The notes under the pieces were generated by a model. It saw nothing but the letters and a program-made list of their open reading frames with translations, was not told the origin of the DNA and did not search any database. 64,000 nucleotides of DNA, from NCBI GenBank assembly GCA_964195615.1, contig CAXMSB010000159.1, positions 1,747 through 65,746 on the forward strand. The letters are read 5' to 3'. Position numbers and translations under genes: made by a program. This DNA comes from an uncultured Granulosicoccus sp. GTDB taxonomy: Bacteria; Planctomycetota; Planctomycetia; Pirellulales; Lacipirellulaceae. This document shows positions 8,372-15,516 of this stretch, piece by piece. Positions within the stretch are counted from its first letter, which is position 1. Each line of letters begins with the position of its first letter.

Positions 8372-9277
8372 CTACTCTTTGGTCATCAGAAAAGCGAAAA
8401 TATCGTGTAGCTGTTTGACGGTGAGCATCTCCGACATGTTGTTGGGCATCAGCGAGGTGTCGAGCGCCAGTGTTTCTTCCAGATCGCGTTTGTCGAGGGA
8501 ATGGAATCGCCCGTCCTGCTCGCGGATTTGTACGCTGAAGTTTGTTTCGTTGATCCGCAAGCCGGTAATCGTCTTTCCAGCTTCGGTCAGCACCATCACT
8601 TGTTCGTACTGTGGATCGATGTCTTGCGAGGGGTTGACGATCGATTCCATGATGTATTGGGCCGAGCGACGGCTGGCGATGCGATCGAGCGAAGGGCCGA
8701 TTCCTCCGCCGCGACGGTCCAAGGCATGGCATTTGTTGCAGGTGAATTGCGATTTGGCGTCGAAGAACAGTTTTTCGCCCGCGACCGGCTCGCCTTCGGC
8801 ATACGGTATCCAGGTGTCGTCGCCCACCGAACGGGCCAGGCTACGGACGTAGGCGATGATCTTGCCGATCTGTTCCGGCTTAAGTGATTCGCCCAGTTTC
8901 TTCATTGTTGTGCCGGGCACTCCTCTCTCGATGATGCCGGAGACCGCCTTGTCGGTGCCGTCGCCGTGTAGCCAGCGGTCGTCGGTCAGGTCGGGTCCCT
9001 TGCCGCCGCGGGCCGCCCCGCCGTGGCAGCCGCTGCACAACCCGCGGAACATCGATTTTCCTTCGTCGAGCGCGTCCTGATTCTCCATGTACCGAGCCGA
9101 GAGGCTTCTACCTTCCAGCGGTGCCGCAGCCTCGGCTTCTTCCGCGCCGGCGTTCTGCTGCGCCAAGCCACTGTTGGCAGAGCAGTAAACGGCAAACACT
9201 CCAATAACGGCCCAAATCAATGCTAGTCGATGGTGCTTCATCAAGGTTGTCTTCACAATCGTGTTAAACAGATTCAT
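8372..9277 (-). CDS. Diheme c-type cytochrome, likely electron acceptor of the PQQ dehydrogenase
   Basis: CSGCH and CNKCH, GPDLT/GPSLD, SLMP; signal peptide; ATGA overlap with upstream gene. Confidence 0.88.
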   Translation of the reverse strand: MNLFNTIVKTTLMKHHRLALIWAVIGVFAVYCSANSGLAQQNAGAEEAEAAAPLEGRSLSARYMENQDALDEGKSMFRGLCSGCHGGAARGGKGPDLTDDRWLHGDGTDKAVSGIIERGVPGTTMKKLGESLKPEQIGKIIAYVRSLARSVGDDTWIPYAEGEPVAGEKLFFDAKSQFTCNKCHALDRRGGGIGPSLDRIASRRSAQYIMESIVNPSQDIDPQYEQVMVLTEAGKTITGLRINETNFSVQIREQDGRFHSLDKRDLEETLALDTSLMPNNMSEMLTVKQLHDIFAFLMTKE

Positions 9278-11622
9278 TCACTGACGGGGATGTGCCACTT
9301 GGCCAGCGCCTGTTGCAGTTGGCCCGACTCGCGCAGTTCGCCGAAGGCGCGGTCGAGAGCATCTTTGAGATCAGTTTCATGGCGACGCACCGCGGCGCAA
9401 ATGCCGAAGCGGTCGACGGCTGTTTTCGGTTGCACGAAGCGAATTCTGTCGGGCCATTTTTCCGCGGCGAGCCAATGAGCCCGACTGGAAACGACATAGC
9501 CAACCGGCGCCTCGCGCTTCGCCACGGCGGAGAGGATCGCTTCCAGGTTGGGATACCGATTGGTCTTGCGCCCCGCTAAACCTCGCACGGCAACGCCCGG
9601 CTCGGCGGCGATGGGCAAGGTTTCCAGATCGGTCGCGTCGCCGTCGGCGGGGACCGCGTACACGTAGTTGGCAAAGTAATACGGTTCGCTGTAGGCGACG
9701 CGATCCGCGAAGCGATCGTCGGGCATCACGCCGAGAATCACGTCGCAATATCGTTTCGTGGCCAGCTTCGACGGATAGGAGTCGTGCGACGAATAGGCCC
9801 AGTAAACCTTCAGCGATACGCCCAGCCGCTCCGCCAGGAGTTGGGCGATTTCGTAGTCGACCCCAGCCGGCGCTGGATGCGTTGTGGAAAATGGCAGATT
9901 GTTCTGATCGAGCCCGACGACCAAAGTCCCCCGCGAGCGAATCTTCGCCAGCCCGTCGTAACTCGCACGCGAACGCTGCCGCCCGCTCATCTCCGGCTCA
10001 AGTCCCCGATCAACCTTTCGAATCCGCGCCGTCCCACCGCTTGCCGGTTTCGCCCCCGCCGCCATCGGGAAAGGCACGAAATAGGGCACGTGATACTCAC
10101 GCAGCGCCTCGGCAACGTCGCCTGCTCGGATGATTTCCTCCAGAGCGTCGTCGATGTGCTTCTTGAGCTCAACGTCGCCGCGGCGCATGGCAACGGCGAT
10201 ATTCCAACGATCCTCGGGAACGTACCCCGCCACGATTGCCGCCTTGACCTCCGGCGATTGGTGCAACAACCAACCACTGTTCGACCACAGATAGGCGTAA
10301 TCGATCCCGCCTTTTTCCAGCGAGTTTAGCAGGGCTAACTGTGTGCCGAAGAGTCGCCGCAGATAGCCCCGTTGCCGCAGGCTGTAATCGGCAATCGTGC
10401 CCGCCTGCGTGCCCAGTCGTCGCGATTTTTCTCCCTTCAAGTCGGCCAACGAGGTAACCGGCTCCGCATCTTGGCGAGCGACGAGAAAGTACCCCGTGCC
10501 GTAGTAGGGGCGCGAGTAGAGCACCTTGCCGGCAAGCTGCTCTTCGTCGTCCATCGCGTCGGGGTCGATCGCCGCGCCGAAGGCCAGATCGCTTTCCCGA
10601 TCGAGCAATTGCCCGGTGGCTGTTTCGCTGTGGACGTCGATCCACTCGATCCGCAAGTCGACGCCAAGCTGCTTGGCGACGGCTTGGGCGATGACGACGT
10701 CGAAGCCGGGCCGCTCGGCGTCGGCGCTGGAATAGGGCAGATTGGCTGGGTCCATGCTGACGATCAGCGTACCGCCCGCTTCGATCCGCTTCCACGTATC
10801 GTTCTCGACCACGGCCGACTGTGCGGCAACTTCGACGAGCGGCGGACGATGCACGAGTCCATGCTTGGCGAACAACGGCGAGAACTTGGCATGACGCAAA
10901 CCGCCGTCGACGGCTCGCGAGATTTCCTCCCGCAGCGAACGGTCGTCCGCACGCACCGCGATGCCGATGCTCCAGCGGTGCTTGGAAACAAACTCGTCGA
11001 CCAGCCGCAACTTCAACTGGGGATGCTCCTGGAGATACCAAGCGGTGAAATCAACGTCGATGAGCGCCCCGTCCAGCTTGCTCTGCTCGAAATCGCGTAG
11101 CAACGCTTCCCGCGAAGGAAAGCCGACGATCTCGTGGTCCTGGCGCAAAAGGGACACGGTCCCCGAGACGATGCCCACCCGTTTGCCGCGTAGCTCGGTG
11201 AGCGAGCGGATGCCTCGTTGGTCGCCGCGCACCACGAGGCCGAATTTTCCGGAAGCGTAGGGCGACGTCCAGTCAACCTGCGACGACTGTACCGACTCGT
11301 GTGGCAAGCCAATCACGGCATCGCACTTGCCCGCCTGCAGGTTGTTCAGCCGGCAGGTGTCGCTCGCACAGGTGTGAAACTCGCACCGCCGGCCAAGCTT
11401 TTCGGCCAGCAGCCTCGCCACGGCGATGTCGACCCCTTCCAGCTTGCCCTCGGCCGAGCGCCCAGCGCGCGGCATCGCATTGGTGCAGACACAGAACCGC
11501 AGCACGTCGCTCTGTAGATTGTCATCGGCCCGCGCGACGAGACCGCCCGAAAGCAGCCAGGCGCACAACAGTACAACCAATCGAAAACGTATTTCAGCTA
11601 ATCGCATCAAGATGCCATTCAC
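9274..11622 (-). CDS. Periplasmic protein with three tandem SBP family-3 (XoxJ/MxaJ-like) domains
   Basis: Three repeats of N-(A/L)-(M/L)-P...G(V/F)D..(V/I)A..(L/V)A..LG and W(T)/YS.PY motifs; signal peptide. Confidence 0.85.
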   Translation of the reverse strand: MNGILMRLAEIRFRLVVLLCAWLLSGGLVARADDNLQSDVLRFCVCTNAMPRAGRSAEGKLEGVDIAVARLLAEKLGRRCEFHTCASDTCRLNNLQAGKCDAVIGLPHESVQSSQVDWTSPYASGKFGLVVRGDQRGIRSLTELRGKRVGIVSGTVSLLRQDHEIVGFPSREALLRDFEQSKLDGALIDVDFTAWYLQEHPQLKLRLVDEFVSKHRWSIGIAVRADDRSLREEISRAVDGGLRHAKFSPLFAKHGLVHRPPLVEVAAQSAVVENDTWKRIEAGGTLIVSMDPANLPYSSADAERPGFDVVIAQAVAKQLGVDLRIEWIDVHSETATGQLLDRESDLAFGAAIDPDAMDDEEQLAGKVLYSRPYYGTGYFLVARQDAEPVTSLADLKGEKSRRLGTQAGTIADYSLRQRGYLRRLFGTQLALLNSLEKGGIDYAYLWSNSGWLLHQSPEVKAAIVAGYVPEDRWNIAVAMRRGDVELKKHIDDALEEIIRAGDVAEALREYHVPYFVPFPMAAGAKPASGGTARIRKVDRGLEPEMSGRQRSRASYDGLAKIRSRGTLVVGLDQNNLPFSTTHPAPAGVDYEIAQLLAERLGVSLKVYWAYSSHDSYPSKLATKRYCDVILGVMPDDRFADRVAYSEPYYFANYVYAVPADGDATDLETLPIAAEPGVAVRGLAGRKTNRYPNLEAILSAVAKREAPVGYVVSSRAHWLAAEKWPDRIRFVQPKTAVDRFGICAAVRRHETDLKDALDRAFGELRESGQLQQALAKWHIPVSE

Positions 11623-11642: not shown

Positions 11643-13412
11643 TTATTCAGGCAACGCAAACACAAACAGCGTATTCCCCTTGCGAGCGTCTCGCATCCAG
11701 GGAGCACCATCGCCCATGAAGCCGGCGGTCCAGCCGCCCCAGCCCGAGCAAACGGCAACGTACTGCCGACCGTCGAGTTCGTAGGTAATCGGCGAGGCGT
11801 GATGCCCGCTGCCGCATTGGTAGTACCAGAGGGCTTCGCCCGACTCGGCGTCGTAAGCGGTAAAGAAACCCTCGGCGTCGCCGGTGAACACCAGTCCGCC
11901 GCCCGTGGCCAACACGCCGGCCACCATCGGCGAACGAGTCTCGACTTCCCACTTGATGTCGCCCGTTCGCACGTCAATCGCCTTGAACGCCCCGGAGGCT
12001 TCGTTTTCGATCATCGTCAGCGAGCTTCCCCAATATGGCTGGCCCTTGATGAAAAACGCCTTGCCGGAGGTAAACTTCGCACAGTTGTTGATCACCGGCA
12101 CGTAGGCACACTGGGTGCCGGGGTGGTAGGCCATAGGGTTCCATTCCTTGCCGCCCGCCGCGCCGGGACAGACCCGCACGCCTTCGTCGTTGGGCATTGC
12201 CGCTTCGCTCACGAAGGGACGCCCCGTCTCGGGATCCAAGCCGTCGACCCCCTTCGAGCGATCGGTCCAGGTCACCTCGCAGAACGGTTTGCCGTAGAGA
12301 AATTTGCCGTTCTCGCGGTCGAGACAGTAAAAATATCCATTGCGATGCGCCTGCACGATCGCCTTCACTTTCTTGCCCTTCACTTCGGTTTCGACCAGCA
12401 CGGGAGTGTTCACGCCGTCGTAGTCCCACACGTCGTGCGGACTGTTTTGAAAGTGCCATTTGTAGGTGCCATCGTCGGGGTTGAGTGCGATGATGCCGCA
12501 GGTGTAGAGATTGTCGCCGGGGCGGACCTCGCCGTTGAAGTCGGGCGACGGGTTGCCGATGCCCCAGTACAGGGTGTTGAGATCAGGATCGTAGGTGCCG
12601 GTGACCCAAGCGGAGCCGCCGCCGGTGAGCCACGACGCGCCGCCCCAGCTCTTGAGCGCTTCCTTGGCATGGGCGGAATCATCGTCGGCGCTAGGCACGG
12701 TATAAAATCGCCACTCGCGTTTGCCAGTCTCGACGTTGTAGGCGTCGATGAAACCGCGAATGCCGTACTCCGCGCCGCTGATGCCGATGATCAGCTTGTC
12801 CTTAATCACCAGCGGAGCAAGCGTCGCGCTGTAGGCCAGCTTGTAGATGTCGCCGACTTCCTTGCCGTCGTCGCCTTCGACGGTGATCGCTTCGTCCCAC
12901 AGCTCTTGGCCCGTGTGACGATCAATGCAAATCAGATGGGCGTCGAGCGTGGTCATGTACAGCCGATCGCCCCAGGCGGCAAAGCCCCGATTCACGGCGT
13001 CGCAACAAAGGGCCAGGTTGTCGGGAAGCGACTTCTGATAGTGCCACAACTGCGAACCAGTGCGGCAATCGATCGCGTAGGCATGGTTCCAGGGCGTAGT
13101 GATGTACATCACGCCGTCGATCACCAACGGAGTACACTCGAACCCGTCGAGCACGCCCGTCTGAAACGACCAAACGGGGATCAGCTTCGACACGTTTTCC
13201 TTGTTGATCTTGTTGAGCGACGAATAACGATTGCTGTCGTAGGTGCGACCGTACATCAGCCAACTGGTGTTGTTCTCTTGGGCGTCGAGCAGTTCCTGCT
13301 GCTCCACGGGCCCCACGGGTTCGGCCGCCTCGACCTTCCCGCCGCCCAGCAGCGGCAGCGAACCGATGACCATGCACAACGACAACCAACCGGTAATGCG
13401 AATAGCAGACAT
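11643..13412 (-). CDS. Type I PQQ-dependent alcohol dehydrogenase with lanthanide-type active site (XoxF/ExaF/PedH-like)
   Basis: WLMYG, LCCDAVNRG, GAEYG, WGIGNP, WDYDG, GGKEWNP; SD AAGGAG before ATG 13412; no heme domain. Confidence 0.93.
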   Translation of the reverse strand: MSAIRITGWLSLCMVIGSLPLLGGGKVEAAEPVGPVEQQELLDAQENNTSWLMYGRTYDSNRYSSLNKINKENVSKLIPVWSFQTGVLDGFECTPLVIDGVMYITTPWNHAYAIDCRTGSQLWHYQKSLPDNLALCCDAVNRGFAAWGDRLYMTTLDAHLICIDRHTGQELWDEAITVEGDDGKEVGDIYKLAYSATLAPLVIKDKLIIGISGAEYGIRGFIDAYNVETGKREWRFYTVPSADDDSAHAKEALKSWGGASWLTGGGSAWVTGTYDPDLNTLYWGIGNPSPDFNGEVRPGDNLYTCGIIALNPDDGTYKWHFQNSPHDVWDYDGVNTPVLVETEVKGKKVKAIVQAHRNGYFYCLDRENGKFLYGKPFCEVTWTDRSKGVDGLDPETGRPFVSEAAMPNDEGVRVCPGAAGGKEWNPMAYHPGTQCAYVPVINNCAKFTSGKAFFIKGQPYWGSSLTMIENEASGAFKAIDVRTGDIKWEVETRSPMVAGVLATGGGLVFTGDAEGFFTAYDAESGEALWYYQCGSGHHASPITYELDGRQYVAVCSGWGGWTAGFMGDGAPWMRDARKGNTLFVFALPE

Positions 13413-13562
13413 GCGAAGTATCTCCTTAAGGACGAGCATCAAAAAAAAGGTGATCGCGACATCACGGACAAGACCCGCGAGTATGGCGAGTTCGCCGGAC
13501 GAAATCAAGTATCATTTCCTGCGTGGCCGGAGGACTGTGGCGTGTCTCACACCGCGAAATCT

Positions 13563-13715: not shown

Positions 13716-15059
13716 CTAGCTGACGGCAGCGTCTACCCTCGTCTGCCTGGAGGGATGAGGAACTCTCTGGTGAAGAGTTCGCAAGGGCGTTTGCACTTCC
13801 AAAGCGCGGTGGATCAGATTCCGCACGAGGCCGGCGAAGACTGGATCTTCATTGACCCAAGGCGCACAGGCAACCGACCCAGCGTTGAAAACCCAGCCAC
13901 CTCCTGGTGTCTCGCGAAAGACCATGTACGCCGGCCCCTCGCGATTCTTGCCGATCGCCAGAACCTCGACGTCGGCGCTCTCTTTGGTGATCTTGTCGGT
14001 TTCGTAGCCACTTGCCCCGAACAGTTGGGGCGTGCCCGTGGATGAAGTGATCTGCTTTTCGTCGAACGTGTCACCATCCTTCACGCCGATCCCGTCGAAC
14101 ACCCAGTGCCTGGCATTGGCCACTTGATAGCCGGCATAGGTCCGGTATCCCCAAGCGTTGTACGAAGCGCCCAGCAATCGCGAGACGGGCGCCCGGTCTG
14201 TCTTGAAATTGCGGACCACGACTGCCCCTTCCACAAACTCCACCATTCGGTAAATGTTGTTACCCGAAATGAAAGCCGCCTTGCCGCCGCCGGCCAGATA
14301 GGAAGTTAATCGGCCCTGCATCTCTTCCGACCAATACTCGCTATGCACGTTGAAAAACAGCAGCTTGGCTTGCGTGGGCCAAGGGTCGTAGGCCAGGTCG
14401 TGATCGGAAAAGAGTCCGTACTCGACGCCCTCACGCTCCAGGAATCGCAGCAGGGCCCATTCCGCTCGGGCCAGATGTGAGAACGACTCGATCGGCGAGG
14501 CTTCCAGATCGCGCAGGTCCTCGTCCAACATAGAGTTCGGCCGGGCCAGCGGTAGCGGCACCGCGGGCACATAGCGGCGATCTCCCAACGTGAATCGCAG
14601 ATTCATAACCCTCATCAGGGTCTTCAAAGCTCGCAGCGGAAACGGCGTGCCGCGATCGTGGTAGTTCGAGAGCCCACCGAAGTGATTGTACGCTTGCCAG
14701 GTGTTCGTGGAACAGACGACCGCGACGTCGACTTGCCGGGCCGGCTTGATGATGATCGGCAGTCGAAACGTCACGTTGGCGTCTTCCCGGTGTGCAAGTT
14801 CCAGCAGATAGAGCCCGCTCTTCAGCGAGGAGGTGTCGATCGAGAGCTGAGGCTGCCAATTGAAACCCTTCCAGAAATGGTATTTTCCTGATTGGATGCA
14901 GGCCGGCAGTTGCTCCTGCCAACCGGTCTCGACGCTGCGCTCGCCGAGACGCAACAGCTTGGCCTGCGCGGGCCGGGTGGAATGGACGCAAATCTTCGCC
15001 GCCTCGCCCCTCGCTACCGAAGGATCGCTCAGGTAGGCCACCAGCGACGGCAGCCGCAC
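13716..15059 (-). CDS. N,N-dimethylformamidase large-subunit-like protein (DUF6605 type); 5' end possibly truncated
   Basis: STNTWQAYNHFGG, HSEYWS, GGKAAFISGNNIY, GASGYETD, GGWVFNAGS. Confidence 0.8.
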   Translation of the reverse strand: MRLPSLVAYLSDPSVARGEAAKICVHSTRPAQAKLLRLGERSVETGWQEQLPACIQSGKYHFWKGFNWQPQLSIDTSSLKSGLYLLELAHREDANVTFRLPIIIKPARQVDVAVVCSTNTWQAYNHFGGLSNYHDRGTPFPLRALKTLMRVMNLRFTLGDRRYVPAVPLPLARPNSMLDEDLRDLEASPIESFSHLARAEWALLRFLEREGVEYGLFSDHDLAYDPWPTQAKLLFFNVHSEYWSEEMQGRLTSYLAGGGKAAFISGNNIYRMVEFVEGAVVVRNFKTDRAPVSRLLGASYNAWGYRTYAGYQVANARHWVFDGIGVKDGDTFDEKQITSSTGTPQLFGASGYETDKITKESADVEVLAIGKNREGPAYMVFRETPGGGWVFNAGSVACAPWVNEDPVFAGLVRNLIHRALEVQTPLRTLHQRVPHPSRQTRVDAAVS

Positions 15060-15066
15060 CCGCGTC

Positions 15067-15516
15067 GGCCGCCTTGCTCGCGGCGTAAACAGCTTCGCCT
15101 TCCAATTTCAAGGGAACGGCCACCGTGGAGAAGTTCACAATTCTCCCGGCCTCCTGACGCCGCATGAGTTTTGCCGCTTCGCGACAACACAGAAACGTGC
15201 CGGAAAAATTCGTGTCGAATACCCGTCGCACCGTCTTGTGTGGGGTGAGCATGCAGTGATTCATCGAAGCGATGCCCGCATTGTTCACCAAGACATCGAG
15301 TTGCCCATATTCCTTTCGCACCTTTCGAAACAACGTCTGCACCGCGTCCTCGTCGGCCACGTCGACACAGAAATGTTGATATTCGGGATGATCGAGTCCC
15401 GACTCACTTCGACTACAGCCCACCACGCGAAAACCGGCATCGAGATAGTGTTCGGCAAGGCCGCGTCCAATGCCCTTGCGAGCACCCGTAATCAACATGA
15501 CTTGATCACTGCTCAC
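15067..15516 (-). pseudogene. FabG-like SDR truncated just after YxxxK
   Basis: TGARKGIG, NNAG, YAASK, then homology is lost and the frame runs over the next gene out of register. Confidence 0.85.

Follow-up and report, generated by a model that had tools for sequence, protein, structure and literature searches.

Architecture of the triple SBP protein

The window analysed here is a stretch of 64,000 nucleotides from an uncultured bacterium of the Lacipirellulaceae (Planctomycetota; Pirellulales), taken from contig CAXMSB010000159.1 of GenBank assembly GCA_964195615.1. On its minus strand, a gene for a pyrroloquinoline quinone (PQQ)-dependent alcohol dehydrogenase is followed by a gene for a protein with three solute-binding protein (SBP) domains and then by a gene for a dihaem cytochrome c. 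The middle gene encodes the triple SBP protein, or J3, which is the subject of this report. Its open reading frame (ORF) reads on the minus strand, not on the plus strand. The GTG start codon lies 20 nucleotides past the stop codon of the dehydrogenase gene, and the TGA stop codon overlaps the ATG of the cytochrome gene as ATGA. The positions of these genes and of the features within J3 are collected in Table 1.

A first-pass annotation made from the sequence alone had described a protein of 782 amino acids with three SBP-3 domains, and this description was confirmed by both sequence profile and predicted structure. The Pfam family SBP_bac_3 (PF00497) matches the protein in three stretches with a score of 153.8 bits, relative to a cut-off of 26.4, and with a whole-protein E value of 2.6e-45. 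Likewise, an AlphaFold2 model computed with 36 orthologues as input contains three separate two-lobe alpha/beta modules (D1, D2, and D3), with a mean predicted local distance difference test (pLDDT) value of 83. In pairwise comparisons, the three domains are 23 to 28% identical. The linkers at residues 264-273 and 522-554 have pLDDT values below 50, and the predicted template modelling (pTM) score of the model is 0.42, so the placement of the modules relative to each other is not predicted.

As judged from its sequence, the N-terminus resembles a Sec signal peptide. AlphaFold2 renders this stretch as one long helix and is of low confidence for residues 26-33. We also considered whether the LLC of residues 18-20 could anchor a lipoprotein and rejected this, because the residue at position -1 is at odds with a lipobox and a cleavage site of the AxA type lies downstream.

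The triple SBP gene is present as a single copy in its own genome. That it might be a pseudogene or a chance ORF was ruled out by the existence of 36 orthologues with a mean column identity of 57%, among which each of the domains has many invariant residues. Furthermore, D1, D2, and D3 are each under purifying selection, and all three are retained at every locus.

Table 1. Genes of the cassette and features of the triple SBP protein (positions in the window)
Feature	Positions	Strand	Description
PQQ-dependent alcohol dehydrogenase	11643..13412	minus	WDYDG motif, vicinal Cys-Cys; start set at ATG of Met33
Triple SBP_bac_3 protein (J3) gene	9274..11622	minus	GTG start, 782 aa
Signal peptide	11527..11622	minus	Residues 1-32; basic n-region, hydrophobic core, ARA/DD; read from the sequence by eye
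Domain 1 (D1)	10837..11517	minus	Residues 36-262; most divergent module
Domain 2 (D2)	10063..10809	minus	Residues 272-520; most conserved module
D2-D3 linker (linker 2)	9955..10062	minus	Residues 521-556; variable spacer, then conserved peptide
Domain 3 (D3)	9277..9954	minus	Residues 557-782
Dihaem cytochrome c	8372..9277	minus	301 aa; N-terminal domain of cytochrome cL / c550 type, C-terminal TIGR02603 haem-binding domain

Conservation of the cassette in Planctomycetota

Among 5.8 billion proteins, a word-seeded search recovered at least 437 full-length relatives (counted as clusters) of 730 to 870 amino acids, with identities of 50 to 83%. The relatives that carry a taxon name come from Pirellulales, Gemmataceae, Isosphaeraceae, or Planctomycetota, and clustering at 50% reduces the whole family to two or three representatives. 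When one genome per prokaryotic species was searched, triple loci were found in 53 species genomes, all of which are metagenome-assembled genomes (MAGs). Nearly all are labelled Planctomycetota, and the three labelled otherwise are assigned to Alcaligenaceae, Deltaproteobacteria, and Terriglobia. Thus, the architecture is already common in databases and frequent among metagenomes, a circumstance that the first-pass annotation had listed as counting against its proposal, although it is essentially confined to one phylum. In the literature searched, we found no description of a multi-domain protein of the XoxJ/MxaJ type (a J protein) or of a planctomycete xox/ped system.

The arrangement of the three genes is nearly universal among these loci. 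At 46 of the 47 assessable loci, the gene immediately upstream, in the same orientation, encodes a dehydrogenase orthologue (median identity 79%), and the cytochrome gene lies downstream on the same strand at 47 of 48 (median identity 62%). The triple SBP protein itself is about 52% identical across loci. In three diverged relatives that were inspected gene by gene, the cassette is intact and the flanks are unrelated; in one of them, pqqABCDE follows the cassette. We regard it as almost certain that the triple SBP protein is a periplasmic partner dedicated to the dehydrogenase and the cytochrome. P0178 (1031 amino acids) and locus L053 (4762-7143) show natural in-frame fusions in which the triple SBP protein continues into the cytochrome without a cytochrome signal peptide; of the 48 species loci, 1 has such a fusion.

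Neither the triple SBP protein nor the dehydrogenase was found in two samples, drawn separately, of 300 other genomes from the phylum, and the genome of the window was the only match; this search scores few top candidates and missed the 31%-identical dehydrogenase paralogue of that same genome, so it is silent on distant homologues. From these samples, we conclude that few species carry the cassette and that its distribution over orders is patchy.

Many public copies of the cassette are split by frameshifts, among them L010 (ERZ26871208 contig_125012) and L068, L069, and L071 (MFD long-read MAGs). Frameshifts of this kind are typical of long-read assemblies and give rise to spurious "single-domain" and "divergent" members in protein databases. 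L069 (32% identity) and L071 (the locus with the Terriglobia label, 38%) were accordingly dismissed as distant variants, being frameshifted long-read copies, and P0181, P0213, and P0220 were dismissed as separate family members for the same reason. Triple SBP proteins are also mislabelled in public annotation, where they appear as binding proteins for the transport of polar amino acids.

The dehydrogenase scores 625 bits with TIGR03075 (cut-off 480) and is also matched by Pfam PQQ models. Its open frame reaches upstream to a TTG at 13508. We located in it both a vicinal Cys pair and the D-x-D motif (WDYDG) that marks lanthanide-dependent PQQ dehydrogenases. Among solved structures, two quinoprotein ethanol dehydrogenases, 6zcv and 6zcw, are closest (427 bits), followed by XoxF (about 347 bits) and MxaF. 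Since the nearest structures are ethanol dehydrogenases, the substrate need not be methanol. The paralogue mentioned above is a second PQQ dehydrogenase with a WDRD motif and a vicinal Cys-Cys, encoded on the minus strand of a 3-kb contig of this genome (C235:40-1902).

The genes that flank the cassette in the window encode RsfS, ArgS, PEP-CTERM proteins, a porin, iPGM, and a DMFA2_C-like protein. A short-chain dehydrogenase/reductase (SDR) ORF at 14431-15516 (minus strand) covers positions 1-157 of the 195 in the adh_short profile and then continues as a low-complexity run that overlaps the ORF of the DMFA2_C-like protein (13716-15059, minus strand). This ORF may represent an SDR gene that has been truncated or frameshifted, or it may reflect a faulty assembly.

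Relationships of the three domains

Single-domain relatives of J3 are related mainly to its second module. In an exhaustive search of representative proteins with the whole protein, single-domain matches of 29 to 46% identity mostly align to about residues 265-525, which correspond to D2, and essentially none align to D1 or D3, as tallied by eye among the matches listed. A search with D2 alone returned mostly pieces of the triple protein that stem from long-read MAGs rich in frameshifts, plus genuine single-domain relatives. The search with D1 alone also returned mostly triple-protein fragments and revealed no independent single-domain relatives of D1; the nearest match to the D1 profile outside the triple proteins is an SBP-cytochrome fusion.

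The genuine single-domain relatives occupy similar genomic positions. All three whose contigs could be read adjoin a PQQ dehydrogenase gene: P0140 (296 amino acids, 48% identical) belongs to a cassette of the order SBP-cytochrome-PQQ dehydrogenase, P0175 unites an SBP and a cytochrome and lies directly after a PQQ dehydrogenase with pqq genes adjoining, and P0222 directly follows a PQQ dehydrogenase. Among the single-domain loci caught by family patterns, 21 of 23 follow a PQQ dehydrogenase. Another fusion of a single-domain J protein to a cytochrome, P0375, occurs in a different lineage.

We examined these relationships in a maximum-likelihood tree, in which an uncurated clade of single-domain SBPs is represented by P0140, P0175, P0194, P0199, P0218, P0222, and P0223. 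Amino-acid binders form one clan (branch support 99/96), with the canonical J proteins in a clan of their own (100/100). D2 is nested within the single-domain relatives as the sister of P0140 (100/96), and D3 is a long branch inside the group of D2 and the single-domain relatives (86/92). D1 falls on the amino-acid side across a weak branch (78/63), and neither its placement with D2 and D3 (p-AU 0.10) nor its placement with the canonical J clan (p-AU 0.35) is rejected. The clustering with ordinary amino-acid binders that the first-pass annotation had named as evidence against a J-like protein is thus not seen for D2 and D3, and the tree is compatible with either outcome for D1.

D2 has the motifs GY.R.L(F/Y)..Q and, at its C-terminus, Y(H/G)VPY(F/Y)PPF in common with the single-domain clade, and D3 carries a truncated WHIP form. 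The C-terminal GVPYRPPF-type motif of D1 is common to the D2 group, yet it is also present in a Mesorhizobium transporter protein. From these sequence relationships, the simplest history would be that a single-domain helper encoded beside PQQ dehydrogenases, belonging to a clade apart from the canonical J proteins, was duplicated in tandem to yield D2 and D3. D2 would then be the retained ancestral module and D3 a fast-evolving duplicate from the same group, and D1 would be either the product of an earlier duplication or a module that was recruited.

Loss of amino acid receptor features

We compared the domains of J3 with HisJ/LAO and other amino-acid binding proteins. Arg77 of HisJ/LAO, which clamps the alpha-carboxylate of the ligand, is kept in all six reference binders and is lost in each of the three domains, where the equivalent residue is Q, S, A, D, N, or P (D1), L or I (D2), or F (D3). 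The equivalent of HisJ Asp161, which contacts the alpha-ammonium group, is kept in D1 alone and is replaced by W in D2 and by V, I, L, or S in D3. With the Lys/Arg/Orn model TIGR01096 (cut-off 256), D1, D2, and D3 score 71.6, 56.9, and 35.6 bits, respectively, and none reaches the cut-off.

Partners for a transport function are also missing. The first-pass annotation had remarked that no ABC permease is encoded nearby, and this holds for the locus and beyond it: there are no transporter genes among the cassette flanks, with no permease or ATPase within 10 kb or so, and the genome, which is 93% complete, contains no homologue of a HisQ/HisM/GlnP/ArtQ-type permease at E<1e-3. A six-frame search of this genome with the three domain profiles found no other SBP_bac_3 protein. 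Because the Arg77 clamp is gone, the family scores are low, and the genome has no matching permease, J3 is not an ordinary amino-acid receptor, and we conclude that it is not a transporter component.

Conserved residues and motifs

Conservation was measured over the 36 orthologues, and columns with at least 90% agreement were counted as conserved. J3 has cysteines at positions 20, 44, 46, 80, 85, 90, 100, 626, and 742. The first-pass annotation had listed the extra cysteines of D1 correctly, and they differ in conservation: invariance is complete for C85 and C90 and nearly complete for C44 and C100, whereas C46 (of "CVC") and C80 (which opens "CEFHTC") lie outside the conserved columns. In the subset of the alignment that was printed, C46 is limited to the closest relatives and C80 is sporadic. 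The conserved set of D1 also includes His83, and most relatives have an additional Cys aligned with residue 94. In D3, C626 is invariant and C742 nearly invariant.

The mean column majority fraction is 0.64 for D1 and 0.75 for D2. Each domain has an invariant cleft-lining motif of its own. Invariant elements of D2 are W327, D329, T334-A335, SRPYYGTGY, LRQRGYLRRLF, and IDYAYLW, and those of D3 are WxYSxHDSYP and DDRF. D2 also carries an acidic insertion, DPDAMDDEEQL (DPxAMDDEEEL across D2 and its relatives), at the site where amino-acid binders have Arg77. This insertion, which was modelled by AlphaFold2 with low confidence, is shared by most single-domain relatives of D2 and is absent from P0222, P0223, and D3.

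Linker 2 consists of a spacer of about 10 to 70 residues followed by the peptide ..DRGLEPxMxxRQRSxxxYxGLxxIRSxG (residues 533-565, about 9928-10026). Seven positions of this peptide are invariant, including R539, G540, E542, S551, and Y555. Being conserved yet disordered in the model, the linker has a pattern that would be typical of a partner-binding motif.

PQQ supply in cassette carriers

No homologues of PqqB, PqqC, or PqqD were found in the 93%-complete genome that carries the window. Among 35 genomes with the cassette (G000 and G301-G334), PqqC scores above its cut-off in 10, and in those PqqC-positive carriers whose contig could be matched, the pqq genes adjoin the cassette. Several carriers without PqqC are multi-megabase, highly contiguous assemblies. 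In comparison, PqqC is above its cut-off in 15 of 23 genomes that have a single-domain relative (Fisher p = 0.008), a difference that is confounded by phylogeny and MAG completeness. These counts suggest that most carriers are unable to make PQQ, with a possible link to PQQ scavenging, which is widespread among non-producers (PMC12124388).

A probable accessory role for the dehydrogenase

By its position and by the neighbours of its closest relatives, the triple SBP protein is a J protein that lies outside the curated J families. It is the planctomycete counterpart of the single-domain proteins XoxJ, MxaJ, and PedG by position, and probably by role. An accessory or chaperone function is the best reading because the J position is near-universal and because J3 is not a transporter component. 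MxaJ acts as a chaperone: it opens MxaF so that PQQ can be inserted, and it departs from the mature enzyme (PMC12276312). Building on the architecture, conservation, synteny, loss of transporter features, and domain relationships described above, we infer that J3 would bind the upstream dehydrogenase as an exported accessory protein and would serve a MxaJ-like role in loading its cofactor. We assign this reading a probability of about 0.5.

Several likenesses accompany the shared gene position. MxaJ/MoxJ (5SV6, 9ISM/9ISO) has a periplasmic class-II binding fold, adjoins a PQQ dehydrogenase and a cytochrome, and serves no transporter; it differs from J3 in being a single-domain protein of about 250-300 amino acids and in having an L8 loop. 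XoxJ (6ONP) and PedG stand at this same place in operons of lanthanide-type dehydrogenases. An N-terminal DPxNLP(F/Y)S motif links them to D2 and D3, and the Trp that replaces HisJ Asp161 in D2 is found in nearly all aligned canonical J proteins. They also have Cys-Asp before the strand xVIG, as do D1, D3, and most D2 orthologues, with Ser at the Cys position in D2 of the protein studied here. However, XoxJ and PedG are single-domain proteins, and the domains of J3 score far below the cut-off of their family model.

If J3 acts in this manner, it would bind the newly exported apo-dehydrogenase, like MxaJ, and would keep the active site accessible until PQQ (and a lanthanide) has been placed. 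Its contact elements would have to differ from those of MxaJ, since J3 has no L8 loop. Further docking sites may be provided by the disordered linker-2 peptide and the two extra modules; candidates for what is docked are the cytochrome, free cofactor, or the other protomer of the dimeric dehydrogenase.

A number of observations weigh against a MxaJ-like role. With TIGR03870 (MoxJ/MxaJ, cut-off 258.1), D1, D2, and D3 score 22.9, 36.9, and 39.7 bits, and with TIGR03871 (PedG/XoxJ type, cut-off 212.15) they score 56.7, 76.0, and 58.8 bits, so that neither cut-off is reached by any domain; the whole protein sums to 177 bits with the latter model. As controls, four genuine J proteins encoded beside PQQ dehydrogenases (from S. 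meliloti, Methylocella, Azospirillum, and Methylocystis) score 268-313 bits with TIGR03871 and 122-164 bits with TIGR03870, and a Mesorhizobium amino-acid binding protein that has its own permease scores 81 and 57 bits, respectively. Profiles of the individual domains match solved amino-acid binders with 70-95 bits and XoxJ (6ONP) or MxaJ (5SV6, 9ISM) with 30-50 bits. The top Foldseek matches are tandem-domain proteins (GlnPQ SBD1-2, BvgS, and EvgS) and amino-acid binders, and neither XoxJ nor MxaJ is within the top 50 PDB fold matches of the whole model or of D2 alone. By profile and fold, D1 to D3 thus look like generic class-II binding proteins, and the fold searches yielded no lead to a particular function. 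In addition, the MxaJ L8 loop with its RNQY, an insertion in 9ISM (FRAPRNQY) and 5SV6 (FKSRRNQY), has no counterpart in D1, D2, or D3. In MxaJ, R161, N162, and Y164 of this loop hold MxaF's roof sheet as well as its active-site Asp (Asp303) (PMC12276312). Because the loop is missing, the contact mechanism of MxaJ is not transferable to J3 by homology. The functions of XoxJ and PedG are themselves only partly settled (PMC12997753), and a separate invariant cleft motif in each domain of J3 would fit the binding of a small ligand as well as the binding of a protein loop.

These results refine what the first-pass annotation had proposed. The designation "XoxJ/MxaJ-like" is apt for the place of the protein within a dehydrogenase-J-cytochrome cassette and does not extend to the curated families, the L8 loop, or the closest folds; likewise, the Pfam/TIGRFAM scan it had called for recovered SBP_bac_3 three times and neither J family. 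Of the three-module chaperone or activator that it envisaged, the accessory role is the best reading by synteny, and only D2 is clearly tied to the single-domain neighbours of PQQ dehydrogenases, with D3 in the same group.

Alternative roles

Other functions can be envisioned for a protein encoded between a dehydrogenase and its cytochrome. J3 might be an electron-transfer adaptor that scaffolds the dehydrogenase and the dihaem cytochrome or anchors the latter, rather than a maturation factor. The translational coupling of the two genes through ATGA favours this possibility, as do the natural fusions P0178 and L053, the single-domain J-cytochrome fusions P0175 and P0375 of other lineages, and the linker-2 peptide, which could serve as a docking motif. 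A precedent is XoxGJ of Methylacidiphilum, a redox partner of XoxF (PMC8498564) that, like P0178 and L053, unites a J module and the cytochrome of the dehydrogenase in one polypeptide. That protein has one J module and one cytochrome domain, whereas J3 has three modules and is usually separate from its dihaem cytochrome. Given the rarity of triple SBP-cytochrome fusions among species loci, and given that the demonstrated role of canonical MxaJ is PQQ insertion, after which it leaves the mature enzyme (PMC12276312), we consider an adaptor function possible but rather unlikely. Adaptor and maturation roles are not mutually exclusive. Another multi-part J architecture was observed in Azospirillum brasilense Sp7 (plasmid p2, L015:3992-5308), where a canonical TIGR03871 J protein of 438 amino acids has a C-terminal TIGR03865 "PQQ-dependent catabolism-associated CXXCW motif" domain.

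One or more modules might instead capture free periplasmic PQQ and/or lanthanide and pass the scavenged cofactor to the dehydrogenase, which would matter most in carriers that are unable to make PQQ. The low frequency of PqqC among carriers relative to genomes with single-domain relatives points in this direction, with the confounding noted above, as does the separate invariant cleft motif of each domain. D2 also offers invariant Arg and aromatic residues and the conserved acidic insertion. There is a functional parallel in PqqT, a periplasmic PQQ-binding protein of another fold (PMC11331073). PqqT (9B1U) resembles J3 in being of the periplasmic binding-protein type, belongs to a lanthanide/PQQ regulon, and handles the cofactor; it differs in its larger, distinct two-domain fold and is thought to act in PQQ transport, and no similarity between it and J3 was detected. 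Nor was similarity to known lanthanide-binding proteins seen. Moreover, the same three-module protein is found with or without pqq genes, so its architecture does not track auxotrophy. Cofactor capture is for these reasons doubtful as the function of J3, although it is partly compatible with both the adaptor and the cofactor-loading roles.

A further proposal is that J3 is an ordinary solute receptor, a tandem binder that feeds a transporter or sensor encoded elsewhere and whose place in the operon is due to chance or regulation. Its three SBP_bac_3 matches fit this proposal, and amino-acid binders are its best solved structures by both profile and fold. D1 in particular scores slightly higher with the Lys/Arg/Orn model than with the J-type model and lies on the amino-acid side of the weak branch in the best tree. 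Tandem binding domains are known from GlnPQ (6H30) and BvgS/EvgS (4Q0C, 9ILW), the best fold matches of the whole model, which have several class-II modules per chain. However, those proteins bind or sense small molecules and carry a fused permease or histidine kinase, whereas J3 has no membrane or signalling domain and no amino-acid clamp. The loss of Arg77 in all three domains, scores far below the family cut-offs, the lack of a matching permease at the locus or in the genome, and the near-universal synteny with the dehydrogenase and cytochrome together render a solute receptor highly improbable.

The cofactor-loading role that we favour could also be combined with parts of these alternatives. 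As a speculative extension, the three modules may constitute a loading platform on which one module holds the apo-dehydrogenase open while the others capture exogenous PQQ, possibly with a lanthanide at the acidic loop, and dock the cytochrome.

Implications for quinoprotein assembly and planctomycete metabolism

The insertion of PQQ and lanthanides into quinoprotein dehydrogenases is only starting to be solved, and the structure of the MxaJ chaperone dates from 2025. A strictly conserved three-module family, found throughout the phylum, lacks the L8 loop, occupies the same gene position, and is sometimes fused to the cytochrome, which indicates that more than one lineage of the binding-protein fold carries the "J" function. 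The triple SBP protein also represents a natural dissection of this function into separable modules. If the platform arrangement is true, then planctomycetes without PQQ synthesis (about 70% of the carriers) would still run a lanthanide/PQQ dehydrogenase, and J3 would be the first described multi-station assembly factor for a quinoprotein. More broadly, the family points to overlooked lanthanide-type alcohol oxidation in uncultured Pirellulales, Gemmataceae, and Isosphaeraceae, and most carriers of this cassette appear to be reliant on PQQ from their neighbours.

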